The notes under the pieces are model-generated. The model was not told the DNA's origin. It did no database searches and was given only the letters and a program-made list of their open reading frames with translations. A DNA stretch of 63,914 nucleotides, counting the filler, from Dirinaria sp. TL-2023a (Eukaryota): NCBI GenBank assembly GCA_051941275.1. It is 52 parts of 52 records of this genome, joined end to end, with 100 filler letters (N's around TTAATTAATTAA, not from the genome) between each part and the next. Parts side by side here need not be neighbours in the genome. Positions count along the whole stretch, not along the records: positions 16,295 to 17,439 come from JAVEBF010002955.1; 51 more parts are not named here. One strand, written 5' to 3'. Shown here piece after piece: positions 731 through 63,914 of the stretch (positions within the stretch are counted from its first letter, which is position 1; every line of letters begins with the position of its first letter). Both the position numbers and the translations under genes were made by a program.

Positions 731-1081
731 TGTCATGATACTTTGACCCTTACGGCCTAGTGACTTATTACGTGAGATGGGTGGAAGCTTTCCCAAGGTT
801 CTCTGGGGTCAGTAGAACTCAAGCGGATACTCGGAAACTTCTAGATGATTTGATGTCATCGTTTTATAAGCGCTGCGTAGGCTTCAGTACAATATATTCG
901 CAATACTGTCAAGTGATTGCGAGGTCGTATAGAATAAAGAGGCCATTCTCATTTCGAGAACTTGAGTTTCTCAGTAATTAGTCTTGATAATCATAAACTT
1001 CTTGTTTCTCATACTGTTGCACATTGTTACATAATCTAGCTAGTACTTGATTTTCATAAGAAATTTCTTACTAGCATAACA
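731..1081 (+). mobile_element. LTR inserted in LINE endonuclease (end may extend to 1130)
   Basis: TGTCATG...CATAACA termini; same 3' end recurs at 22509-22561; alternative end TATGATA at 1130 gives near-TSD AAAAC/GAAAC. Confidence 0.65.
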
Positions 1082-1162
1082 ATTCTAATTACTCTTCTTC
1101 TAAGAGTGATGATTCGTATACAGTATGATAGAAACAACTCGACAAGAACGTGTCGCGTCGCG

Positions 1163-1262
1163 NNNNNNNNNNNNNNNNNNNNNNNNNNNNNNNNNNNNNN
1201 NNNNNNTTAATTAATTAANNNNNNNNNNNNNNNNNNNNNNNNNNNNNNNNNNNNNNNNNNNN
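1163..1262. other. Artificial contig spacer N44-TTAATTAATTAA-N44 (first of 51; last at 62716-62815)
   Basis: Identical 100-bp linker recurs about every 1.2 kb; intervening contigs decrease monotonically in length from 1162 to 1099 bp. Confidence 0.99.
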
Positions 1263-2423
1263 GTTATATTCATCTTATTATTCTTCAACACTTCGCGGAT
1301 GAATATGAGGTTATCATATTTATTGATGGTATCGTTGAACATCCTCGTCATAGACGACGATTTCGCTCTTTTAGAGGCTTTCTTTTGACCTCGTTTCTTG
1401 ACAGTCTGAGATATAAATAATTGCTGAGAGAAAATCGAAAACTGATCAGACAGCATAAATTGAAACTGCAATATTTGTGAATTTGCTGACTCAGTCGACG
1501 AAAATGACTGCTGTTTCAATGAGAGTTAAGAAAAGACTGATGAGAAGTGTTTTTTCTTCACGTGAGAGCGTTTGTTTTGTCTCGAATTCTCGTCATATCT
1601 TGCGTTTACTGTTTTGACGTTTTGATCTGATAGATCTAGATCTGTCATACTCACAGTAATAGATTTGCTGTCAGAACTATCATAGTTTGTGTTAAATTGC
1701 GTGATGAGAATATTCTATTTGTTCGAATCGAAGAAATTTGATGTGTTTTCTTGTATTAAGTAAAACTCATACGACTTTACATCTTGAATCTCTGACTCAT
1801 CACAACTGATTAGAATTTTATAACTCACTGAGATCGTTTGATCAAACACGATTTTTCTCAAGTATGCTTGCTCTCAATAAGACAAGAGTTTCTTTTTACA
1901 TTCTCTGTCAATATGATCAACATGATCACATTTAACGCATAATCGATCATGTTGATCAATGTATCACTGTACAGAGTCATTAATGAAAGGGTTTTTCGAC
2001 TCAGATCTGTTCGATAAATTCTTCTGAGAAGATGACTGCTTGGGTTTGCGCGGTTGAGTTTGATTATTGAAGTTAGATGTCGAGGCTAACGATGGTCTTG
2101 ATTTCTGACGAGAAAAATGTTTCTGATTTTGAGTAGAGAGTTCGTGCATCGTCGAACTAGATCCTTTGACTGCTTAAGGTAAGAGCAAAAATGAGGATCG
2201 CGATGAGATTGCGGTCGAATTCTGATGTATCGTTCATTCTAAGACAGATCTACCCTTATCAGCATGATAAGAAGTGAGCATAGCTTGAATCTGATGCTGT
2301 GAGATATTTCTTTGAGCGAGCTCTTTGTAAAATGCCAACTCGTTCTGTTTAAGTTCCTCGTCAAATAATTTCTGCATTTCAATATTGATGCGTCTGATTT
2401 TCTCAGTCAGACTGTAAATACTT
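1263..2423 (-). mobile_element. LTR retrotransposon gag region with CCHC zinc knuckle, degraded
   Basis: Minus strand LCVKCDHVDHIDRECKKKLLSY*EQAYLRKIVF (CX2CX4HX4C) around 1850-1950; CC/GG-depleted. Confidence 0.65.
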
Positions 2424-2523
2424 NNNNNNNNNNNNNNNNNNNNNNNNNNNNNNNNNNNNNNNNNNNNTTAATTAATTAANNNNNNNNNNNNNNNNNNNNN
2501 NNNNNNNNNNNNNNNNNNNNNNN

Positions 2524-3681
2524 ATGTTGCTATCGTCCAACAAATTCAGATCAAAAGCAGAGGAGACCCTGAAAGAGGGGCTGGAGATGGCTCCGAAGCT
2601 CGAGCTCGTAGAGAAGAAAGTTGAAGGTGCAGAGACGAGTCAAGATGTCATACTGGAGGATTCGACGAATGAACAGGGAGGCATTATGTTGTATACCTCA
2701 GGCACCACCAGTCGACCAGTATACACCCTCCCTTTGATGTGTATAACGGCAACTAAGCATTGCTATATTATAGAAGGGGGTCCTCCTCCCCCAAAGCGTC
2801 CTAACAGCGCAATGCCGCTCTCTCCTCCAAGCCTGGAATTATACCCCGAAAGACCGCCTTCTGCACGTCCTTCCTCTTCACCACATCCACGGCACCGTCA
2901 ACGCGCTCCTAACCCCTCTTCTAGCCGGCTCCTCGATTGAGTTCATGTTTCCCTTTAACGTCGCCGCGGTCTGGGATCGCCTTGGCGCCCCTTTTCTGGC
3001 CCCGAATCAGTCCCAAGGCGAGAGGAAACAACCTATAACATTCCTCACAGTTGTGCCTACAATCTACAACCGTCTCTTATCTTCTCATAAGGAGCTTAGT
3101 TCACGAATATCAGAAGCATCGAAGAAAGCGCTCTCGCCAGAGAATATGCGACTGAACATCTCCGGCTCAGCCGCTCTTCCTACACCCACGAAGAGTGCGT
3201 GGACGGAGCTCAGCAGCGGTAATGTTCTACTCGAACGGTACGGAATGACGGAAGTCGGCATGGCATTGTCCTGCGGTCTGTCCTTTTCCGACCGCGTCGA
3301 TGGTTCAGTTGGCTGGCCCCTACCGTTCGTGGAAGCTCGACTGGTAGACACAGAAACCAACGAAGTAATACCACCAGGGGAAGAAAAAGATACCGACGGG
3401 AGCGAGCGCGAAGGAGAGATCCAATTGCGTGGGCCAACGGTATTCAAAGAATACTGGCGCAACCCAAAAGCCACAACGGAAGAATTCGTCGAAGGTGAAG
3501 ACGGAAAAGGACGCTGGTTCAAAACCGGCGACGTAGCGATCCGAAGACAGGTCGAGGGCGCCGGGCAAAGCGACCAAGCATGGGCCAAGGGACCGATGTA
3601 CTTCATCCGCGGCCGCAAAAGCGTCGACATCATCAAAAGCGGTGGAGAGAAAGTGTCGGCGCTGGAAATCGAACGAGAACT
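2524..3681 (+). CDS. AMP-binding acyl-CoA synthetase, ACSF3/malonyl-CoA synthetase-like (internal fragment; intron 2719-2773)
   Basis: YTSGTTSRP|KGV P-loop restored by removing a GT..AG intron; LPLHHIHG, SGSAAL, ERYGMTE, WFKTGD, GRKSVDIIKSGGEKVSALEIE motifs. Confidence 0.92.
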
Positions 3682-4221
3682 NNNNNNNNNNNNNNNNNNN
3701 NNNNNNNNNNNNNNNNNNNNNNNNNTTAATTAATTAANNNNNNNNNNNNNNNNNNNNNNNNNNNNNNNNNNNNNNNNNNNNGAGGGGGGGGGGATAAATA
3801 TTCTTTAGAAACGGGGAGGTTTTGGTCGCGCTTAAGAGTCGGTGCGGAGATTGATGAGAGAGAGAAGTGATGAGAGGGGGTGATTTAGGGAAGAGGGTTT
3901 AAGAACTGTATTATGCAGGGGAGTTGATTTTTCGATGCTGTTGAAAGATAAGACTGGAGGTGGCCGCCGTTAGGCGCACACCCCCCTTTCCCAATGGCAA
4001 ACCCCTTCTTCTCAACTCAACCCCTGCTCATACTTACATGATCAATCGTTCGATACGTCTCTTGTCAAGAACATGCACTGTCTCAACATTTGTAGAGCTG
4101 AACGATAAGTATCACGTAGACGATAGAGGTAGTAGTTGACTTCAAGAACTGTCTCGGCTTTCGACTAAAAATTTGTTCGAAAATATTCAAGATCTTTTCG
4201 AAGTTTTTTTTTTTTCGAAAA

Positions 4222-4938
4222 GTGCACATTTCGACACTCAAAGAACGTCATGATCAGGGGGCTCAGACCACCATAGACCTGAGCTTCACCACAGACGGTG
4301 TTGCTGACAGACTAATATACTGCGGAGTAGATAATGAAGTGGAAAATTCATCTGATCATTTACCAATACGAACGGTATTGGACCTTCGCACACAGGAAGA
4401 GTCACAACGTCACCCCCGACGCAACTGAAAGAAGATGAATGTGGAGAAGTTCGACAATGTACTACGAGATCATCTACCAGAACCAATGTCACAAGAACTG
4501 ACAGATCGCCAGCGCATTGACGAGTACACAATGAAGCTACTAGATGCCTTAGAAAAGGCAACAGAGGCGTTCACGCTCTGAGCCAAGCCGCATGAGATGG
4601 CCAAAGCGGCATGAACAGACGAGTGCACTCAGGCAGTGAAAGAGACTAGACGTCTGCGTCGCGAATGTCGTACTTCGGCAGACTGGCAAGCGTATATAAA
4701 AGCCTGCGATCGCAAGAGAAAGATATTGAGAAAACATAAACGAAACGAGTTTCGCACGGTCATGCAGGTCTCGAAAGCGACTAGTAAAACTCTCTTCAGC
4801 AACGTCAAATGAGCTCGAAACGCGATAGCAGACACGTTGACTCAAGCGATCATTTCATCGTTAAATCGAGACGAAGACATAGTCGTCACGGCAGCACAGA
4901 AGACAGAACTCATGTTTCAGACGCATTTTTCATCTTCG
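4222..4938 (+). mobile_element. Tad1-like LINE ORF2 fragment (APE C-terminus and linker)
   Basis: TTIDLSF...SSDHLPI APE motifs followed by TGG-to-TGA stops; 4670-4938 near-identical to 14675-14948. Confidence 0.85.
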
Positions 4939-7900: not shown

Positions 7901-8879
7901 AAACGCTTAAGTTAGATCAACTAATAGAAATTTTATCTTATTCACCAGTTTCGGTCAACGCTTCGAATCCGAGTTCAATATTCGAAAATTATACCTAGAT
8001 AGTGCAAGCTTACAGCATGACGATATAGAAGAGCGTTGTGGTCTCTTGAACATCTTCTAATACGAAGAAGGTATTGTCTTTCGTGTGGAGGGTATGAGTA
8101 TTTATCGACAACGCGATGCGATTCTTTGCGGATATTCTACTCATCGCGACTGATAAGGTGTAGATAATTAAGACGGTACCAAACAGGACTTCTTTGAATG
8201 TTAGAACAGCTGGATATTTCAATTACAAGATAGCGAAGAAGTGCAGCTCTTTACTCGAAGAGCACACTCAAGCACATCTCGACGTCTTCTCAGCATTCAT
8301 GATCGAGATCATCATATCGTTTATCTGTCTACTACGAACTCTCTCGAAGAATTCAGAAACTAGTACATGCCATCTTCTTCTGAATCGAGAAGTAACTTCT
8401 CAGTTGAAAACACTTCATCATCGATCGATGATTGAACATCATTCATACTCATATCATCTCGGTCTTTATTTACTTCTTTTTTTCTCTGACACTATGGATC
8501 GACGACGATACAATGACTCTCAGCAATGACTCGGATTTTCAGATTCTGTGACATCTTTTCGGACAAGAGATAACTTTTATCTCAACCATGTTACCTCTAG
8601 GACTTCTTTGGAAGTTTACAGCATCGAGTTGCGCTTCCATTTAATTGAAGAAAGAAACTCTGGATCATTCAGTAGCAACAATTCAGCACTGGTTCTAGGC
8701 TGNNNNNNNNNNNNNNNNNNNNNNNNNNNNNNNNNNNNNNNNNNNNTTAATTAATTAANNNNNNNNNNNNNNNNNNNNNNNNNNNNNNNNNNNNNNNNNN
8801 NNCAACAATGCATTGACCTAGATGGCAATGTCAGCAACGCATCCGGTAGGCATCTAGACACTTCCCCCTAGCCCTGCTA

Positions 8880-9954
8880 GACACTTTAGTTCATATCTCA
8901 GAACTACAATGCCTTCAATTCGACAGTTCGCTAGAGTCAGAAGGATCACCCGCCGCGCTCAGAAATCAACTGCATCGACATTCTCATCGACAACGACACT
9001 CTCATCGTCATCGACAGCGGCGTCATTCTCTGACATTCTCATTGACACGATGTCATCTTCTCTGAAGATTTCTGACTCGCAACCCATCTCGTCGTCAACG
9101 CGCTCGTCAGCACGCGTCGCGAATATTGAGGCATTACTAGCTGATATTGAAGTCGAAAAACGATATAAGACACTAAAGACAGAGCTTCTCGTCATTAGAA
9201 ACGAGCACGACTCTTTCTCAGAAACGTCATCGACGTCATCATCATTGCTTCATCGCCTGCTTCAACATCAAATCGCACTCGATTTTCGCATCGCAAAGCG
9301 CTTTTTCACACTAGATTCACTAGTTAGTTCATATCTCAGAACTACAATGTCTTCAATTCGGCAGTCCGCTAAGGTCAGAAGAATCACTCGTCGCGCTCAG
9401 AAGTCAACTGCATCGGCATTCTCATCGGCAACGGCACTCTCATCGTCATCGGCAGCGGCGTCATTCTCTGACACCCTCATTGACACGATGTCATCTCCTC
9501 TGAAGGTTTCTGACTCGCAACCCACCTCGTCGCCAACACGCTCGTCAGCACGCGCCGCGGATATTGAGGCATTACTAGCTGATATTGAAGCCGAAAAACG
9601 ATATAAGACACTAAAGACAGAGCTTCTCGTCATTAGAAACGAGCACGACTTTTTCTCAGAAACGTCATCGACGTCATCATCATTGTCAGTTGCGACGTCG
9701 CAGTATCAGACTTCGAATGAGTTCTTCTTCGATAAAGAATTTTTTTTTTTGTCTCTTTCTCAAATGTTTTCTGCGGTGAATCAAAAATACTACTCTGAAA
9801 TTTGACGCGACGAATTCAATTCTCGCGAGCTCAAAAAACTCTTCAATGATTGATCGAATCGTGTTGCGCAGTATGATGATGTCACGAAGATCGAAATGAA
9901 ATCAGTTGCGCGATTCGTCAAGATCATGAAGGTTTACTCTCAGATGATTAGACA
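8880..9954 (+). mobile_element. Repeated ORF1/gag-like sequence, possibly of a tyrosine-recombinase (Ngaro/DIRS-like) retroelement, with internal 438-bp tandem duplication
   Basis: Second copy at 63061-63914; mutated FSAVNQKYYSEI*RDEF...MKVYSQ...ALITYRYR...YIVESI recalls fungal YR-retroelement ORF1; family assignment from memory only. Confidence 0.45.
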
Positions 9955-12552: not shown

Positions 12553-13440
12553 TGACAGACATCGACAACTGTGAAAAAGATACAATCTTTTCTCGATTTC
12601 ACAAACTACAATCGAAATTTCATCAGAGACTACTCTAAAAAGACAGTATCTTTAACTAAACTCACTGCGAAGAACACTCAATGAATCTGAGAAAAGAACG
12701 AACAAGAAGCATTCGAACAGTTGAAGAAAACATGTTTGAAGAAATCAACACTTAGAATGTTTGACGAAACGAAATCAATACGAATAAAGACTGATGCATC
12801 AGATTTGACTATAAAGACTTGTCTGTGTCAGAAGAAACAGAGCAAATGACACTCAGTGACATACTTCTCGAGGAAATTATCATCAGTCGAACAGAACTAC
12901 GACATACACGACAAGGAACTACTAGCTATTGTAGCATCCTTGGAAACCTGGAGGGTATATGCAGAAGGAGTATCTGGACTTGAAATACTAACAGAAGACA
13001 AGTCAGATGATGGGAACTCCTTGGACAATATAAGTTTACTATAAGATATACATCAGAAAAAGACAATGACAGGGTGGACGCACTAAATCGACGAAGCGAC
13101 TATATGAAAGACAAGACGAAGTTCAATCATAGCATATTAAAAGTGAATTAGAATGAATCACTATCGACAAACAAAACTCAGAAGTTAAATGCGACGCTGC
13201 GCATACTTCGAGACGATCAAAAGCAATACTCTATACAGAGAGAAAAACTGCAGATATCGACAGACAAGATTGAAGATTGCATTAAAAAAATATCACGATG
13301 AGTCACTGCAGAGACATTTGAGAATATTCAAAACGATACAGCTTTTACGACGAGATTGTCAGTTTTCACAAATGAGACAAAAAATCGAGACATACATTAA
13401 ACGATGTTCTAGCTGTCAGAAAAACAAACATGCGACTCAT
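12553..13440 (+). mobile_element. Ty3/Gypsy pol fragment (RT end, RNase H, integrase HHCC)
   Basis: [50 protein letters not shown]...CSSCQ. Confidence 0.92.
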
Positions 13441-13700
13441 TGTAAGGTCGTATGCGCCGGTTACCCGCCGGCGCAGTACTTGTGTGAAAGACGTGACAGT
13501 GTAATAGATTATATGGCTACCTGATACTGTAGTTCCTGCTAGAACTAATCACTAAGGACCCCCCTTCGAAAGAGCTGAGTGATTCTCTATACTTAACCGC
13601 GAGCGTTAACATTGCCTCATCATGACGAGCCTCGCGCTGACGAATCACGAGCGCTCGTAGACACAATGTTCTATAAACGTCAATCGCTCACTGACTTTTA
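13441..13700 (+). mobile_element. LTR (partial) inserted into Gypsy integrase; same family as 34876-35068 and 62082-62493
   Basis: Abrupt TGTAAG start and switch to CC/GG-rich sequence; matches reverse complement of 62082-62493. Confidence 0.85.
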
Positions 13701-16294: not shown

Positions 16295-17398
16295 ACATTA
16301 ACTGCCTGGAAAGAACTCCTAACATCAAAGGTTTTAGATTCGAAATGAATATACGAATGTGATTTAGTAAATTATTTTAACGAAATCCACCTACCATCTC
16401 TGGACAAGAGATTAAAAGAACTATATTTCCCGGTAGAATTACGTAGAATACTTTCGGAACTACACTCCTGTGCACCCAAACTCCCAGAGATGGAACTAAC
16501 CGACGAGCGATACGTCCACGAGAAATCCTGAGAATACGATCGAAACCAACTGCACAAAGGAGGAAGCCCTATATCAGTCTTAGACCTCCCAGGAAACCTA
16601 AACAAGAATGTAAAGGTATCTAGTGGAATGTCTCTCTTGGGACATCTACTAAGAAGTCTGGATCAAGTATCCGGTGATACAAAGTACCATCACAAAGACT
16701 GAAAGGGAAACAAGGGTTTACCACAAGGAGCAGCCACATCTCCCTATCTCTCTAACTTAATGCTAAAAGAATTCCTGTCCCAACAAAGATCGATATCATA
16801 TGCAGACGACCCAATATTCTTTAGTAACAAAAGATTCGAGTTGTGAGACAAGAAATCCCAAGGTATAGAAATCTCTCCATCTAAATCGGGCTGAGTTAAG
16901 AGAGCAGGAAAGTGAATAAAACCACTTAAATTCCTCGGAATAACTTATGACGGAAATCTCAATAAACTTCAAGCTTCAACTCATAATGGAGCCACCTTAG
17001 AAGTAGCAGGTCCAGTAAAGGTGATCCTGGAGCATCTATCCCACTGAATTCAATCAGGAAAGATAGAACAACCCTACACTCCAAGATCTAACAACAAGAC
17101 GCTACATAGTTGAAAGCGTCTATTCAGTCATAAGTTTGCGGGGTTTATACAAGCATGTATGTATAAGGATAGCTGAACGGATAAATTCTACCAAGATTTT
17201 GAACTAAAATGAAAGGGAAGTAGTTGACTAAGCATCCAGCCTACTACATCTCCTAAATGGTCAACATTCACCGTCTCATCTTATGCAAGCATAAGTCTGC
17301 TTAACACCCTTAGAAAGGTAAAGCTTAGACAAAAGATGTTTTACGGAGTACGTTTAGTATTTGCACGCGGCCGTCCTCGAAAGACGAGAATTAGCTAG
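16295..17398 (+). CDS. Reverse transcriptase of mitochondrial retroplasmid type, genetic code 4 (TGA=Trp), 5'-truncated by contig edge, 367 aa visible
   Basis: Single frame with no TAA/TAG until 17396-17398; 11 in-frame TGA versus 2 TGG; motifs TLTAWK, IYECDLVNYF, GLPQGAATSPYLSNL (16715), YADD (16799-16810), KFLG (16928), C-terminal GFIQACMY.DSW..QDF.L...SSW. Confidence 0.88.
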
Positions 17399-17539
17399 AC
17401 TAAGGACACTAAGACCAAACCAGCCAATCGTTAGCTCACNNNNNNNNNNNNNNNNNNNNNNNNNNNNNNNNNNNNNNNNNNNNTTAATTAATTAANNNNN
17501 NNNNNNNNNNNNNNNNNNNNNNNNNNNNNNNNNNNNNNN

Positions 17540-26450: not shown

Positions 26451-29400
26451 ATATCTCTTTGGTGATAGTTGCTTTTGGAGCTAGCTACGTCTCTGTGTAG
26501 AATAGCTGAATCTATTGTGTCGGTTGTCTATAAAATAACGTCCGTCCCCGTGTTGCGAGCCACCCTCCGTAGCGAGCCACTTTACGGGTACTTTGTCTTT
26601 TAAGCAACTCTGTCAGATGAATGATGTTCGACCCATCATAGTCTACAGCTGGATAAAGCGTGTTGTCTCATATCACATCCTATTAGAATTGTCAGAATTT
26701 GTTATGGCTGTAGATAGCATTCAAATAGATAGTATGAGCACAAGATCATAGAACTAACCCTGAGTAAGAAATTCAGTCTTTGTATCGAGGGAGCTCAGGT
26801 GCAGCCGAATAATGCGTACTGAAAAGAGAGAGATCTGTTGATGACTGTGATGACGAAACGCTGGGAGTCTTAAAGAGATGTGAATATTTACTCCGAAGTC
26901 AGTTGCTCACTGACTTTCGCGGTCGAGGGAAAGAAGTGACAAGAGACGATTGACAATCAGACGACGGCACGTTGGTTGAAAAAATAGATCGCAGTAAGAT
27001 TATCAGACACATATTTAATCTATCACTGACTTCTCAAAGCATCGTCAGAGCGTTTTGCTTGATTATACTTGTAGCTAGAACAGGACATCGCTCTCTTAAT
27101 ATATCTTTTCATGATTGCGAGAGGTTTATCTATTGTGGATGCAGCCTCCGATGCGGTCGTTTGCGGATGGCGGCCAATTGCGAATGTAAAGAACGCCATT
27201 TTCTGCTGTGGGTTTAGATCGATGCACATAACCTCAATTTTGAGAAGCATCCCTCAGCGAGTGCTCCCCCAAGAGCCACTGCGTGCCCGCTGAGGGATTA
27301 CTCGTTGGGAGAGCACTCCCTACAGACCAGAATTTGAGGGTCTGCGTCGAGAGTGCTTCTCTCCCTCNNNNNNNNNNNNNNNNNNNNNNNNNNNNNNNNN
27401 NNNNNNNNNNNTTAATTAATTAANNNNNNNNNNNNNNNNNNNNNNNNNNNNNNNNNNNNNNNNNNNNTCGAGGCTTCTTAGTCTTGTGAAGATATATTGA
27501 AAGCAATTCAAGACTCGACGAGATTTCATCACTTCTTGCAATACGTGCGTCTAAATCTGTGATTTCTGAGAGTATTTGCTTTCGAGATAAACGATTCACA
27601 TTCATAAAGCTGAAGTTTGAGATGATGAAGATTTGTAGAGGTTTAGAGAACTAGAATTGCGCGATATTAAATATATGACTTTACTTATTAGATTAGAGAT
27701 TGTTCTTAGCAGCAATAGAATGAACTTGCGCTAGAAAAATCAGATGTCAGACTCTGCTAAACTGCTCAGAAAAGTGTCATAGTGTAGCTCGGCCAACCGA
27801 AAGTACGTCTGTATGGCAATGATGGTGAAGGTGTGGCGGTGAAGTTGAATCTCATCATCATATCAAAATCTGATGATAATTTATCTAATTAGGTCTAGAG
27901 GCTGCGTCAAAAGGTTTAGTGTAGAGGATGTGACAATAGAAAGAGGGGTGTGACAATAGAAAAGAGGGAACGTGTGACAATAGAAAGAGAGGCGTGAACG
28001 TTAGCGAAAGCTTAAATATAGGGATTATTGTGCGGTCGCTATTGCGCGCGTTTCACCCGCTGTGTCAGAGCGCTGTACATCATTTTCCTGAATTCGTCTA
28101 GATTTGGGTCGGCTACGAACCTGTTGTTACTACGATATACAGCAGAGTCAAATGATCTCTCGACGCGAAGAGTCTGTCTCAAAGTGTTAATTACAAGAGA
28201 CACTGACATACGAAATCCATTCGACACGTTGTTGATCTGACTCGTACTCAGACTCGAAGCTGAAATTATTATTCAGTGAACGCGGTATCGTCTATACACG
28301 CGACAGAACATCCTTAAGCTCACATCTGCTCTGAGATCGTTACAGCTTCGGCGAGGGCGAAGCGGCGAGAGCGAAGGAATCTCTAGATCTCTACCTCACT
28401 CGTACTGAGACCCGAAGCAGTTACTGAGCGTGAAGATAGCTGTGAATGTGGTATCGTTCTAGAACTGAAGGAGATAAGAGCTTGGTTAGTAAGAGACGAC
28501 CGAACTACACTGCCGACGTGAGTGTAGCAGACGGAATCTCTTGCAAGACATGATCGGTCTGTCATAGCGACAGCTCTACAGATATCGCGAAACAGTAGCA
28601 TTCANNNNNNNNNNNNNNNNNNNNNNNNNNNNNNNNNNNNNNNNNNNNTTAATTAATTAANNNNNNNNNNNNNNNNNNNNNNNNNNNNNNNNNNNNNNNN
28701 NNNNAAAATCTGCACTGCGATCGAGAACGAATTATTAATTATCTCATGTACATACGAATTTTATGATACTAGCATTTAGAGCTAAATCATATTTGTTTTA
28801 GCGAGATTGAGAGAGTGATACGATTTTATCGTCTTGAAGTTACTTGACTGTAAAGTAAACAGATGCTCAGCAACGTCGTGTGATCTATTTCTTTCGATAT
28901 TAAGCTTTCTGCTCACTGTATATCGATAACATAAGATAATTAAAAAATCAAACTTTTATCTCTAGTCAATGAGTTTTATAAAAAAAACTACACTAGATCT
29001 AATTCGAAGTAAATTGATAAATATTACTAATAGTCTCAGAATCCCACGATGTGTGTGAATTTCAAATGTTCTCAAATCTCAAAATTGTGAATCTGTGCAG
29101 TGAATCATGAGTGTCTGACTTTCGCGTTCTTTTCAAAGTTCACTCATTTCTCATTCATATTTTCTTAGCTCTCATTCATTTTTGTCATCATTCGCAGCAT
29201 TCTTTTGTCTCGTTATTGTGTGCATCAATCATGTCAATCAATGTAAATGCTCGTCACGCAGACAGCTTCAATCGAAACGTTTTTTGATTCGAATTAAGTT
29301 TCAAAAATCTAACAGAAATGACGAACTTTTTAAAGTTCGATATGTTTGAGTTTTACTGAATCACGTATGTAAAAGACTTTCTGAAAGCAGATTAAAAGAC

Positions 29401-29763
29401 TTAAGCGAAGAAAAAACGTTCGCGTCTCAGAGACGCGAATTTTCGCAGTGTGATGAATCGAATCAATGAGAGCGAGAAAACTAATTTGATCAAATACTCT
29501 ATCAAAACTCTCAAAAAAAAGCGATGAGATGTCACAAATCACAAGACATTGCTGTTTCACGATCTAAAACGCGAAAATTCAATTACGATCACGAGTTTAC
29601 TTTATGATAAAGATTATTCAGAATCGAAGTGTGATCTCATTATCTGAAATCTGATCGAATATGCGATCGAAAAAGCAGTCTTCTCAAAACAAAATCGAAA
29701 AAAAGACAAACAAACTAAAATCATCGATTTTTCGAGCTCGATAATGTCTTCTCACATCAAAAA

Positions 29764-34875: not shown

Positions 34876-35068
34876 CACAATGCTCTATAAGCGTCAATCG
34901 CTCACTGACTTCTAGTTAGCCTCGAGATTCAACCTTCCGACGCTGACTCCTAGACGGCGCTAGCCATGCTTCAGACCCCGAAGGATTGCCCCTGGGCACC
35001 CCCGGCTGCCAAGCGGCGCTAGTCTGCATTGGTCAATATATATCAATGTATCAGGTATCACTGTTACA
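34876..35068 (+). mobile_element. LTR 3' part (family of 62082-62493)
   Basis: Ends TGTTACA; reverse-complement match to 62082-62274. Confidence 0.85.
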
Positions 35069-36121
35069 CAACTTCAATCACAACACTATTTGAACTTTTC
35101 AAATATCTCAACTGCTATCGCAAACGCTGATATCTCATTCAAGATTTCAGTCGCAATCAAAGACTCTATTAAGAGCGACGACATGCATCTGTTTCGCGAC
35201 ATTTAGTCTGTCGTCAGTCTCATCTCAAACTCATTTCAGTTTCATTATTTTATTCTTTTGTGTCAGTTGTGCGACAGACTGTAATCTCATTTGAATCTCA
35301 TCTCAGATACTAAGCTGAGACTACATATCAAACTCACTTTAGTTTCATTACAACTTCATTTATCAGCTCTGATTCAGCTACATCTCTAGCAAATCTGTAT
35401 GGGAAAAGACTATATCACAGCTAAACAAGATTCAAATTTGAACTCGAAATGAAACAAAAATGAGATTAACACACTCTGGATTGACAAACATCATAAAATC
35501 ATTACTAGTCGATAAGTGATTTAGTGAGCATAGACTCAACACTGATAAAGAAGATCATTCGCGATGCAAAAATTGCTTGAGAATATTCAACTAGCGACAG
35601 CGATATCGATTTCAAAACGAATCTTATCATCAAACGCGCTATGTCTAGAAAAAATATCATCAGATTTCTCAGTTTTAGAATCGACTGTGAATTAGTTGAC
35701 AATGATTACAGAGTCTCACGTTTCAAGATATCATCAAATATCAGATCTGAAGAAAGAACGTTCGTGAAAGTAGACTTTAAGCTGTATGACGATCAGAACG
35801 ATTATGTATCAATTAACTATTTTTTGTCTGACTTTCATGTCTCGCGAATAATCGAGAAAGAAACGACATCAACGATCACACACTCTGCGGACTTCATCGC
35901 AGAAGACAAGTCTAAATGATCGCGAAAAAACAAGAGAGAGATCGCAAAAATGATCATTTTCGAAGTATGATACTACGTACAACACGAAGAATACACCTTC
36001 GTCGACNNNNNNNNNNNNNNNNNNNNNNNNNNNNNNNNNNNNNNNNNNNNTTAATTAATTAANNNNNNNNNNNNNNNNNNNNNNNNNNNNNNNNNNNNNN
36101 NNNNNNCTCTCCCCCCAATAG

Positions 36122-41016: not shown

Positions 41017-41822
41017 CACTGACTTCACATAAGATTCAACGTTGACGACAAATAAAAACATATATTTCGCAGTGTCGCGCTCAGCGATTAATCACGAAAC
41101 AGCAGTGTGATACACGTCGACGAGTATTAAAAGTCACAAAAAAACAGTCGACGCGAAACTGCGTTCTATACAGAGTAAAGAACTTCGTCAAATCACGAGC
41201 GTTTACAAAACGACATCAACGAAGACATTACAAATGAAAACTAACACGACGTCTATCGACATTCATCTCAAAAAGCTGCTTCAGAGATCAATAACGAACA
41301 TGAACGCAAGAAACTCGAGAAAAACGATCGAAGTAGCAGTGACGCGTATAAAACGTGACATAAACTTCAAAAAAGATCGTAGATCAAAACTCAGAAAAAC
41401 GTCATTGAAATTTAAAAGAAAATGAATGCGTCGAGCATTAAACGAAAAATTCATATCACGTCGACAGATTTATACTGCGACATCGTGAGTGAAGTCTCCG
41501 AAAGTAATTATTCAAAACGAAACACTAGCGATAAGATATTGAAATGAGAATAAATCAAATTCATATTGAAGACTTTACTCAAACGAAAACGATCAAGACA
41601 ATGATGTGATCGCAGTTACAATCGACGCAAACTGAGAGAAGAAAAGACGTTTAGAAAAAATCGACGTAGCGTTGACTTATCACGAAGAGCTCGAGAGTAT
41701 TATTGTTGAGATCGAGCAATTGACAGCTTATTGCGTAAAAAACGACAACTGCGTCGACAGAATATATAGAATTTACTCAGACAGTCAGATCTCGTTGAAA
41801 ATAATGAACACAATGACATTAA
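41017..41822 (+). mobile_element. Tad1-like LINE ORF2 fragment (post-RT region and RNase H)
   Basis: ITSVYKTTSTKTLQMKTNTTSIDIHL; LTYHEELESI, IYSDSQISL RNase H motifs. Confidence 0.8.
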
Positions 41823-42120
41823 TGTCATGAACCAGACCCCTATGGGCCTGATCACATGATTGGGTCACATGATTGCATGGACCCTGGACCCTGAAGCAGA
41901 GTCCCTGGATACCACATGTGTGTGGAAAGGTCTATACCAACTGTTTTGCTAGAGGTGTTGTGTTTTTGCCTGATCAGGTTTAGCGTCCTCGGACCGGTGT
42001 TGTTCCGATCCCACATTTAAACCTACCTGTATTTAGATTTCCTTTTCCTTTTCTTCTTTATAGATAGTGTCCTAGTCTATTCGTACCCATATGCCATTGA
42101 GCGCTGTGCAGGCCCTGACA
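41823..42120 (+). mobile_element. Solo LTR (298 bp) with perfect 5-bp TSD ATTAA
   Basis: TGTCA...TGACA; ATTAA at 41818-41822 and 42121-42125. Confidence 0.95.
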
Positions 42121-53960: not shown

Positions 53961-54459
53961 AGAAGAAGAGCCTATGGACCTGACCTGGCCTGAATAGATG
54001 TAGTCGACTTTTTGTTCTAGGATCGATCGATTGCCTGATAGTTTGCATCGATCTATGTGCGTGATAAAGTAAAATTTCTTAAAAAGTACCTCCCAATCGC
54101 AGAGTCAAAACCCCACCCCTTTTTTTCAACTTCAAAAATCTCATCACACTCTGCAGTCTGCACAATTTAAATCATTCCTCACAAATTGAACCCATAATCT
54201 AATCTAATCTAATCCCCTCCTTCCTCCTTCTTCTAGTAACCTAGAAATCCCTAAGCGCAAACCCCGTTCCCACGAAATAGCCATGGACNNNNNNNNNNNN
54301 NNNNNNNNNNNNNNNNNNNNNNNNNNNNNNNNTTAATTAATTAANNNNNNNNNNNNNNNNNNNNNNNNNNNNNNNNNNNNNNNNNNNNATACAGCCGCCG
54401 CTAGCAGTGGTATCTCGGAATATATTTTCGACGGATGTGCAAAGCCTTAACTTACATTT

Positions 54460-54891
54460 ATGAAACCTAGCTCAACCATTTCGGCCGTATTAGGAGTCGG
54501 TCTCTTTGCGTCGATTTGTAATGCAGAACGGGCATCTCCAACAAAAATTGTAGGACTCACCTATCCATGTTTGGCCCTAAAGGCCAAGATTCAAGGATCG
54601 GTAAACGTTCGATGTGAGATCAGCCCGAAGGGGCAGTGCGATAAAGCGAAGGCTCTAAGGGGTCAACCGCTTCTTTTGACGGCTGCTCTTAAGAACGCGA
54701 GGCAATGGAACTTTGACAAGCCAAATAACAATTCGGCAGAGGACAGATCCATTGATTTACAGTACGTGTTTTTGATATCGGAGAAACGAGACCTTGAAGG
54801 GACTAAGTTCATAGTTGAACTTCCGAACAAGGTAACCGTCATGGGTTACTTCGATCCTACCGCTTCTTGTGGCCCCATTATAATCAGGTAA
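54460..54891 (+). CDS. Bacterial secreted protein with TonB C-terminal domain
   Basis: Signal peptide; YPCLALKAKIQGSVNVRCEISPKG...GQPLLLTAALKNARQWNF matches YP..A....I.G.V...G.P.L..AA..A..QW.F. Confidence 0.8.
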   Translation: MKPSSTISAVLGVGLFASICNAERASPTKIVGLTYPCLALKAKIQGSVNVRCEISPKGQCDKAKALRGQPLLLTAALKNARQWNFDKPNNNSAEDRSIDLQYVFLISEKRDLEGTKFIVELPNKVTVMGYFDPTASCGPIIIR

Positions 54892-62493: not shown

Positions 62494-63060
62494 GTTCTAA
62501 TCACTTCAATCTTTTGAAGAAAAAGGCCCGAAGTGTAATAGTGATGACGTTCTCGCGTGAAGTGTCAGAGTCTCAACAATCGAAAGACGATTTTGAAGTC
62601 GTTTCGAACGATCGCTCGCTCTTCGTCGCCGCGACTTTATCAAACGACGCTGAGTCAAACAACAGTCCGAATATCTTACGAGATGAGCTCGCTCAACGCA
62701 TTCATGACTTGAAATNNNNNNNNNNNNNNNNNNNNNNNNNNNNNNNNNNNNNNNNNNNNTTAATTAATTAANNNNNNNNNNNNNNNNNNNNNNNNNNNNN
62801 NNNNNNNNNNNNNNNTTGCCATCTAGGTCAATGCATTGTTGATTTTTAAGCAATGCTTTGTTGATTTCAAAGCATTGATTTCCAAGCATTGAATATCCAA
62901 GCAATGATTGCAAAGCAATGCTCTCGAAGCAACTTGCGCATATCGCATATCGTCAAGGCCTATCCCAATTCGATTAGCAGCATGAGCAGTGAGATTTTGG
63001 TAGTTGGCTTGACAGTGTGTATTTAAGTCATCATGAGTCTCACCTTGAGTTGATCATCAC

Positions 63061-63914
63061 CATTGCTTCATCGTCTGCTTCAACATCAAATCGCACTCGA
63101 TTTTCGCATCGCAAAGCGCTTTTTCACACTAGATTCACTAGTTAGTTCATACCTCAGAACTACAATGCCTTCAATTCGGCAGTCCGCTAGGGTCAGAAGA
63201 ATCACCCGCCGCGCTCAGAAATCAACTGCATCGAAATTCTCATCGGCAACGACACTCTCATCGTCATCGACAGCGACGTCATTCTCTGACATTCTCATTG
63301 ACACGGTGTCATCTTTTCTAAAGATTTCTGACTCGCAATTCACCTCGTCGTCAACACGCTCGTCAGCACGCGTCGCGGATATTAAGACATTACTGACTGA
63401 TATTAAAATCGAAAAACGATATAAGACACTAAAGACAGAGCTTCTCGTCATTAGAAACGAGCACGACTCTTTCTCAGAAACGTCATCGACGTCATCATCA
63501 TTGTCAGTTGCGACGTCGCAGTATCAGATTTCAAATGAGTTTTTCTTCGATAAAGAATCTTCTTTTTTGTCTCTTTCTCAAATGTTTTCTGCGATGAATC
63601 AAAAATACTACTCTGAAATTTGACGCGACGAATTCAATTCTCGCGAGTTCAAAAAGCTCTTCAATGATTGATCGAATCGTGTTGCGCAGTATGATGATGT
63701 CACGAAGATCGAAATGAAGTCAATTGCGCGATTCGTCAAGATCATGAAGATTTACTCTCAGATGATTAGACATTTCGTCACATCGCTGCAGCTTCGTGAC
63801 GAGCTGAACAAAGCACTCATCACATATCGTTATCGCATGTACACACACTTCGAGTCATACATCGTCGAGTCGATTATGCGTCTAAACGAAACGTATTTGT
63901 GTGCTCGTCTCACT
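63061..63914 (+). mobile_element. Second copy of the gag-like repeat at 8880-9954 (single unit)
   Basis: Near-identical to 9243-9954. Confidence 0.6.

Follow-up and report, generated by a model that had tools for sequence, protein, structure and literature searches.

The DNA examined here, hereafter the window, is a stretch of 63,914 nucleotides from the genome assembly of Dirinaria sp. TL-2023a (GCA_051941275.1), made up of 52 short contigs of 1099-1162 bp set out in descending length with artificial N/TTAATTAATTAA spacers between them. One whole contig of 1145 bp (16295-17439) carries a 5'-truncated gene for a reverse transcriptase (RT) that is legible only under genetic code 4, in which TGA specifies tryptophan. 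This gene, together with the small mitochondrial element from which it probably derives, is the subject of the present analysis. Frame 1 of the contig (16295-17395, plus strand) runs for 367 codons up to a TAG stop at 17396-17398 and contains 11 TGA and 2 TGG codons with no internal TAA or TAG. The recount agrees with the sequence-only reading, an earlier inspection of this stretch by a model, which had reported the same open frame and called it invisible under the standard code; read with that code, the contig offers at most 96 consecutive open codons. A code-4 frame of at least 367 codons was obtained in none of 2000 base shuffles of the contig (mean 113, maximum 239), and an estimate from base composition places the chance of 367 codons without TAA or TAG at ~2e-8. 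Downstream of the stop, the 3' untranslated region is represented by its initial 41 nt (17399-17439), which show no repeat or Rfam match before the contig breaks off.

The code-4 translation of this frame, P0001, matches the Pfam family RVT_1 (E 4.3e-11, 43.4 bits for a cut-off of 29.6). The ordered RT motifs announced by the sequence-only reading were all found again in the same order: TLTAWK at residues 1-6, IYECDLVNYF at 19-28, GLPQGAATSPYLSNL at 141-155, YADD at 169-172 and KFLG at 212-215. P0001 also keeps 12/12 of the invariant columns of a 46-row family alignment, A1. The motif numbers used here follow general RT usage, and all features lie on the plus strand. The motif 3 region IYECDLVNYF (16349-16378) holds residues E237, D239 and F244, invariant in A1, and the block is conserved in alignment A2 as well. 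Between motifs 3 and 4 lies a variable insert (16379-16714) corresponding to A2 columns ~250-410, which vary in length; it measures 112 residues between IYECDLVNYF and GLPQG, close to the 115 or so first estimated. In the structural model of the nearest relative, P0002, the insert is in part helical and in part of low confidence, residues 305-361 having a low predicted local distance difference test (pLDDT) score. Motif 4 (GLPQGAATSPYLSNL, 16715-16759) includes Q369, G370 and P375, invariant in A1, and aligns to RT chains of the PDB. The catalytic YADD of motif 5 (16799-16810) provides the invariant Y394, D396 and D397. It is followed by the region of motifs 6-7, KSGWVK ... LKFLG (16883-16939), where W200 and W207 are encoded by TGA at columns with Trp in 38/45 and 42/45 rows. 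The C-terminal region (16940-17395) is thumb-like, helical in the relative's model, and contains W273, W294 and W311, all TGA, whose columns show Trp in 43/45, 43/45 and 40/45 other family rows. P0001 is a reverse transcriptase whose catalytic motifs from RT3 onward are all intact.

The preponderance of TGA over TGG in the RT gene is in keeping with an A-rich third-position codon bias: the third position is A in 155/367 codons, AGA occurs 10 times and AGG never, and GGA, CCA, AGA and TGA are alike the preferred synonyms. GGA (14 codons) and CCA (9 codons) are intact, as had been stressed from the outset. Five of the 11 TGA codons fall at A1 columns where 38-43 of the 45 other rows have Trp, and two more at mostly aromatic columns. 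In each of 33 related loci from JGI metagenomes, a long open reading frame (ORF; 185-827 codons) exists under code 4 only, with 4-21 in-frame TGA per locus and a longest standard-code ORF of 69-217 codons. A third line comes from a 92%-identical relative on a contig of sequencing run X1. Codon 79 is TGA here and TGG there, a synonymous change under code 4; among the 40 substitutions listed out of 89, 33 lie at third codon positions (binomial p 2e-10), and 31 of the 38 codons that they alter remain synonymous under code 4. This pattern implies a gene under purifying selection in this very frame and code, which rules out that the TGA codons stem from TGG-to-TGA hypermutation of a dead nuclear copy. 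These three independent lines indicate that TGA is read as Trp in the RT gene and that the frame 16295-17395 is a real, selected protein-coding gene.

The same observations bear on the suspicion that the contig holds the RT pseudogene of a nuclear retrotransposon with hypermutated TGG codons, or the RT of a bacterium that itself uses code 4, for instance a mollicute. Long TGA-rich frames without TAA or TAG do occur elsewhere in the window, for example at 3888-4937 and 41033-41980. Yet TGA occupies conserved Trp columns throughout the family, in unrelated samples and in 33/33 loci, and the changes relative to the X1 contig are mostly synonymous. The sequence-only reading had likewise held hypermutation to be unlikely, on the ground of the intact GGA and CCA codons. 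The window contains 98 frames of at least 130 codons with TGA, and among the 18 other long code-4 frames tested by Pfam none gave a match dependent on the TGA reading. The genomic contexts of the family are moreover fungal-type mitochondrial, not bacterial. Pseudogene and bacterial RT alike are refuted for practical purposes, and together they form the least probable of the explanations considered.

The contig 16295-17439 is not the complete element that it had first been taken for. The 2977-bp X1 relative contains its whole length: record positions 1671-2815 align to it with 89 substitutions and 0 gaps, which leaves another 1670 nt on the upstream side and 162 nt on the downstream side; since this relative continues past both ends of the window contig, both are assembly breaks. 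Full-length relatives measure 557-622 aa, and P0001 aligns with their residues ~217-589. On this basis, ~216 N-terminal codons, including RT motifs 0-2, are missing together with the 5' leader, and P0001 is the C-terminal 60% of a ~590-aa RT. The contig is best described as an internal-to-3' fragment of a predicted ~3-kb element encoding only an RT, and no other piece of this RT element was found in the window. A search of sequencing runs listed a single run, which shared few words with the contig and contained a relative, not the window sequence itself; no RNA data set was listed, and the result has no bearing on expression.

The relatives of P0001 are numerous. In a word-index search returning 70 of them, the best match was P0002 (54% identity, E 7.7e-115), encoded on a 3126-bp contig; the six nearest proteins, P0002-P0007, all reside on contigs of 1.7-3.1 kb. 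An exhaustive HMMER search returned 756 representative clusters at E<=1e-3, 328 of them at E<=1e-10, and a profile search produced 356 family matches, of which 120 were listed. The longest contig was shorter than 5 kb in 68/70 rows of the word-index search and in 118/120 listed rows of the profile search. Family contigs measure mostly 1.8-3.2 kb and their proteins ~500-700 aa. All listed members come from JGI, ENA or Logan assemblies and none carries an NCBI name. RVT_1 was the sole domain found by Pfam in 46/46 family members, with no integrase, endonuclease, RNase H or maturase domain, and in the 33 related loci, which were gathered with a 14-row alignment, the RT is the only long ORF; a few hundred untranslated bases precede it as a leader, and a short trailer follows. 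Downstream of its RT, locus L013 displays a second code-4 frame of 498 codons (1894-3387, plus strand) with no Pfam family, a predicted hydrophobic stretch and coiled-coil-like sequence. The stored homologue P0124 retrieved only generic RT clusters from the ESM Atlas (scores 0.91-0.92), which is uninformative.

The nearest solved structures are those of group II intron RTs, and the contig could in principle belong to a mitochondrial group II intron and encode its protein. Modelled with AlphaFold, P0002 (pLDDT 79.8, predicted template modelling score 0.80) has as its best structural match the GsI-IIC group II intron RT (6ar1_A, Foldseek E 2.8e-10; VIA Z 18.4, root-mean-square deviation 3.5 over 266 aligned residues, model 111-511), the alignment reaching residue ~511-525. 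The next matches are RTs of diversity-generating retroelements, G2L4, retrons, R2 and LINE-1, and the structural nearness to group II intron RTs agrees with the view of retroplasmid RTs held in the literature. The only named relatives are likewise group II RT/maturases, all of them weak matches: bacterial plasmids at a tblastn E of 4e-5 over 30% of P0002, and entries of a protein collection at E 7e-7 and weaker. On the other side, neither GIIM nor Intron_maturas2 was detected by Pfam in any of the 46 family members, while a maturase domain was recovered in 19/33 outgroup RT ORFs used as a positive control (18 GIIM and 1 Intron_maturas2, including a mitochondrial ORF on L073). No Rfam group II intron was found in contig 16295-17439 or in 20 full-length related loci (E<=0.01). 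A group II intron protein is accordingly very improbable and largely refuted by the maturase-domain, intron-RNA and tree results. Features of bacterial retron or defence RTs were also sought, and the related loci had neither a second gene nor Rfam retron RNA. The L073 ORF itself (976-2529, minus strand) belongs to a mitochondrial group II intron, has Intron_maturas2 with a degenerate RT catalytic motif lacking YADD, and looks like a maturase-only derivative.

In phylogenetic trees the family forms one side of a branch with Shimodaira-Hasegawa-like approximate likelihood ratio test (SH-aLRT) values of 99 (48 family rows) and 100 (35 rows including the Logan-derived protein P0265). All 16 group II RT rows, 3 of them NCBI-named, stand on the opposite side in both trees. 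The first tree was computed without L035, L041, L042, L046, L060 and L063; the second (LG+G4) used 29/46 A1 rows and omitted L038, L050, L054, L056, L061 and two L064 pieces. Such trees show the separation of the family from group II RTs, not an order of origin, and they set the family off as a lineage of its own. The sequence-only reading had judged the protein unlike a group II intron maturase, and had named a grouping with group II RTs and flanks folding into domains V/VI as what would speak against a retroplasmid; the split found is the opposite one, and the contig has no Rfam intron match.

The family can be tied to elements already described. Twelve retroplasmids of Botrytis cinerea were reported in 2025, each with one RT ORF of 481-551 aa readable in the mitochondrial code only, detected as both RNA and DNA, and recovered from many draft assemblies as contigs of 1.6-2.2 kb (PMC12737674). 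In the published tree the Botrytis plasmids share a clade with pFOXC and pThr1 (PMC12737674). The supplement prints only the first 400 nt of each sequence, a stretch that includes the ORF start for RtP92 only. P0265, found with the L009 protein as query, is 481 aa long, the length given for RtP92/pBCRT4 in Table S5 (PMC12737674), and the first 84 residues of RtP92, translated by hand with code 4 from the printed portion, equal those of P0265 at 83/84. P0265 is taken here as the pBCRT4 RT or a near-identical variant. It matches P0001 by BLASTP with E 3e-31 (26% identity) and P0002 with E 2e-59, and lies within the family clade (SH-aLRT 100), in a subclade sister to that holding the window RT. 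The family of the window RT, judged by these matches, includes the RT of a published Botrytis cinerea retroplasmid. The RTs of pFOXC, pThr1 and Mauriceville were not among the matches of the word-index searches, and a short motif common to the printed Botrytis 5' leaders was present in 0/74 loci.

Signs of a mitochondrial setting are provided by L064-L067, four IMG/VR contigs of 38-87 kb filed as viral. LAGLIDADG and GIY-YIG intron ORFs occur on them together with a pair of tRNA-Arg genes and an intron-rich gene for a membrane protein, and they are in fact fungal-type mitochondrial DNA. Between the tRNA-Arg pair and the membrane-protein gene sits a copy of the family, split by a frameshift in L064-L066 and reduced to small pieces in L067; both pieces of the L064 copy nest within the family in the tree. 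These copies imply that the family is at home in fungal mitochondria, where it now and then integrates and decays. In L009, whose RT is the JGI locus nearest to P0265, the sequence upstream of the RT (1-69) resembles in frame what we take to be the C-terminal end of a mitochondrial NADH dehydrogenase (nad) subunit, which suggests an integrated or co-transcribed copy. L032, a contig of 4.5 kb, encodes a family RT of 734 aa and, 1.8 kb upstream of it, a tRNA at 6-73 (Rfam E 5.5e-5); it may represent another mitochondrial-genome context or a plasmid with an acquired tRNA. Integration followed by decay has been described for mitochondrial plasmids (PMC12737674).

The window copy could also be a member of the same RT family lodged in the mitochondrial chromosome, as a plasmid-derived or free-standing ORF. 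The decaying copies of L064-L067 and the sequences upstream of the RT in L009 and L032 make integration conceivable, and contig 16295-17439 has no flanks by which to judge it. However, the integrated copies seen are frameshifted or fragmented, whereas the window ORF is intact over 367 codons and under purifying selection. The 92%-identical relative lies on a 2977-bp contig although run X1 holds a record of 19,743 bp, its longest, and the short contigs of P0002-P0007 all point the same way. We regard an integrated copy as unlikely.

Another doubt concerns the host alone: the element may be real and belong to another fungus or other eukaryote present in the sequenced material. This is compatible with a plasmid and with an integrated copy alike, and its likelihood is not to be summed with theirs. 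The window contigs are fungal in character, with a GH81 gene, a DUF3602 gene, an integrase of a long terminal repeat (LTR) element and an AMP-binding enzyme. A further contig encodes an ORF (54451-54888, plus strand) with the C-terminal domain of Gram-negative TonB (TonB_C, E 1.2e-10), so that the assembly appears mixed, with bacterial contamination. Members of the RT family are also plentiful among environmental JGI, ENA and Logan sequences. No observation argues directly against a foreign host. The G+C content of the contig (40%) falls within the 33-53% range of the other window contigs, and retroplasmid contigs of similar size are regular in pure-culture fungal assemblies (PMC12737674, Table S6). 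A different host seems rather unlikely.

Our preferred explanation, to which we assign a probability of about 0.7, is that a ~3-kb mitochondrial element of the retroplasmid kind, with an RT gene as its only gene, is represented in contig 16295-17439 by the 3' ~60% of that gene. Confidence is high for the family assignment and moderate for the window copy being a free plasmid of the assembled organism. Several points weigh against this explanation. The window copy is a 1145-bp fragment, and it is the relatives that supply the single-ORF layout, the total size and the ends. The shortness of the contigs counts for little, since most contigs in the searched collections are short. Some family copies are integrated in mitochondrial DNA (L064-L067), and upstream of the RT, L009 and L032 have what looks like a mitochondrial gene and a tRNA, respectively; with a mixed assembly, another fungus may be the source of the element. 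Both trees are quick searches on a deep split, and in the second long branches meet at the join of family and outgroup. The identity of P0265 with pBCRT4 is based on 84 hand-translated codons, and the tie to pFOXC, pThr1 and Mauriceville on statements in PMC12737674, not on direct alignment. As for the ends, short tandem 3' repeats were present at 0/33 related contig ends and CCA at 1/33; long hairpin-type inverted repeats were found in 0/14 loci, and end overlaps indicating circles, like terminal inverted repeats, in 0/33. These end-structure negatives are of limited weight because assembled contigs seldom keep true ends. Searches for RNA genes yielded, with Rfam over 20 loci, only the L032 tRNA already mentioned and one miRNA match below the threshold, and with ARAGORN a tRNA in 0/10 loci.

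If the element behaves as its studied counterparts pFOXC and Mauriceville do, the mitochondrial RNA polymerase would transcribe it end to end, and the full-length transcript would serve both as messenger RNA for mitochondrial ribosomes and as template (PMC3035579). The RT would then bind the 3' end of its own transcript and copy the RNA into minus-strand DNA, and the element would persist as an extrachromosomal plasmid with neither integrase nor endonuclease (PMC3035579). The first ~100 residues of the full-length protein, absent from the window contig, form in the P0002 model a small beta-rich part followed by helices (residues ~32-100 mostly at pLDDT >80) and are spanned by no structural match; this N-terminal part might have a priming role unlike that of the studied plasmids.

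Some other frames of the window deserve mention. Those at 8858-9952 and 63027-63914 (both plus strand) give long, near-identical serine-rich translations, the first repeating a unit internally; they are read as a dispersed repeat family with long frames devoid of TAA and TAG and with no Pfam match. Four further frames, at 3888-4937 (minus strand), 41033-41980 (plus strand), 28965-29480 (minus strand) and 34919-35320 (minus strand), contain 9-12 TGA and no TAA or TAG, have no Pfam family, and may be the hypermutated repeats mentioned in the sequence-only reading. The LTR retrotransposon signal is an integrase zinc-binding domain at 13189-13521 (plus strand, E 5.7e-14).

The sequence-only reading had proposed a candidate new mitochondrial retroplasmid. 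The retroplasmid part stands, the RT being of that type and sharing a family with the pBCRT4-like P0265; the novelty is not borne out, with 756 clusters public and such elements described in 2025 (PMC12737674), and the autonomous, possibly linear form also suggested there is no more than a possibility. The element most probably belongs to a known kind, the small RT-only fungal mitochondrial plasmid, and the window RT is a real and fairly ordinary addition to it, not a new kind of element. Taken alone, the contig is one more host-associated copy of modest weight. Its wider use lies in the family that it reveals: 756 clusters, 33/33 loci legible in code 4 only, and nearly all on 2-3 kb contigs. 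Standard-code gene calling hides such elements in fungal draft genomes, and a code-4 scan of short leftover contigs offers a cheap route to them. Few retroelements are simpler than retroplasmids, yet only a handful of fungi have served for their study; PMC12737674 calls their diversity largely unknown, and our literature search found no large-scale description of clusters of code-4 RT-only units. We tentatively suggest, at odds a little short of even, that the window element and P0002-P0007 make up an undescribed retroplasmid lineage within a very large, unsurveyed radiation of RT-only mitochondrial replicons, a lineage marked by RTs of ~560-620 aa, a ~3-kb unit, a ~1-kb leader and an insert of 110-170 residues between RT motifs 3 and 4. 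If so, the radiation would comprise hundreds of 50%-identity clusters, nearly all of them nameless in public databases.

Among known systems, the closest are the Botrytis plasmids pBCRT1-9, and pBCRT4 especially: like the relatives of the window RT, these have a single RT ORF in the mitochondrial code only, RVT_1 as sole domain and draft-assembly contigs of ~2-3 kb. Unlike the pBCRT4-like P0265, the window RT belongs to the other subclade, with P0002-P0007, whose proteins are longer (~557-622 aa versus 481-551 aa) and whose insert between RT motifs 3 and 4 is far larger. The Mauriceville and Varkud plasmids of Neurospora are mitochondrial and RT-only, and their size is similar to that of the window relatives. 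They are circular, and their cDNA synthesis starts at a 3' tRNA-like CCA end; the window relatives differ in showing no circular overlaps and, save for one locus in 33, no CCA end. The start of Mauriceville/Varkud cDNA is de novo, and retroplasmids as a whole range from 1.9 to ~4 kb (PMC3035579). The plasmids pFOXC1-3 of Fusarium oxysporum are small mitochondrial plasmids of the same kind, with one RT ORF, no RNase H and extra RT domains of non-LTR type (PMC3035579). Unlike the window relatives, at ~3 kb and ~590 aa, pFOXC is by its published description linear and 1.9 kb long with ORFs of 497-527 aa; it is protein-primed, one end is a hairpin, and at the 3' end a unit of 3 or 5 bp is repeated 3-5 times (PMC3035579). 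With the GsI-IIC RT (6ar1) the family shares an N-terminal extension/RT0 and a thumb-like region, and it differs by the absence of maturase domain and intron RNA, by its separate clade and by ~100 extra N-terminal residues. Mitoviruses, finally, offer an analogy drawn in PMC12737674: they replicate in fungal mitochondria as single-gene units of 2-3 kb without a capsid, use TGA for Trp and abound in environmental assemblies. Their one gene is for an RNA-dependent RNA polymerase and they pass through no DNA stage, whereas the window gene encodes a YADD reverse transcriptase; the radiation outlined above, if confirmed, would be their DNA/RNA counterpart in fungal mitochondria.

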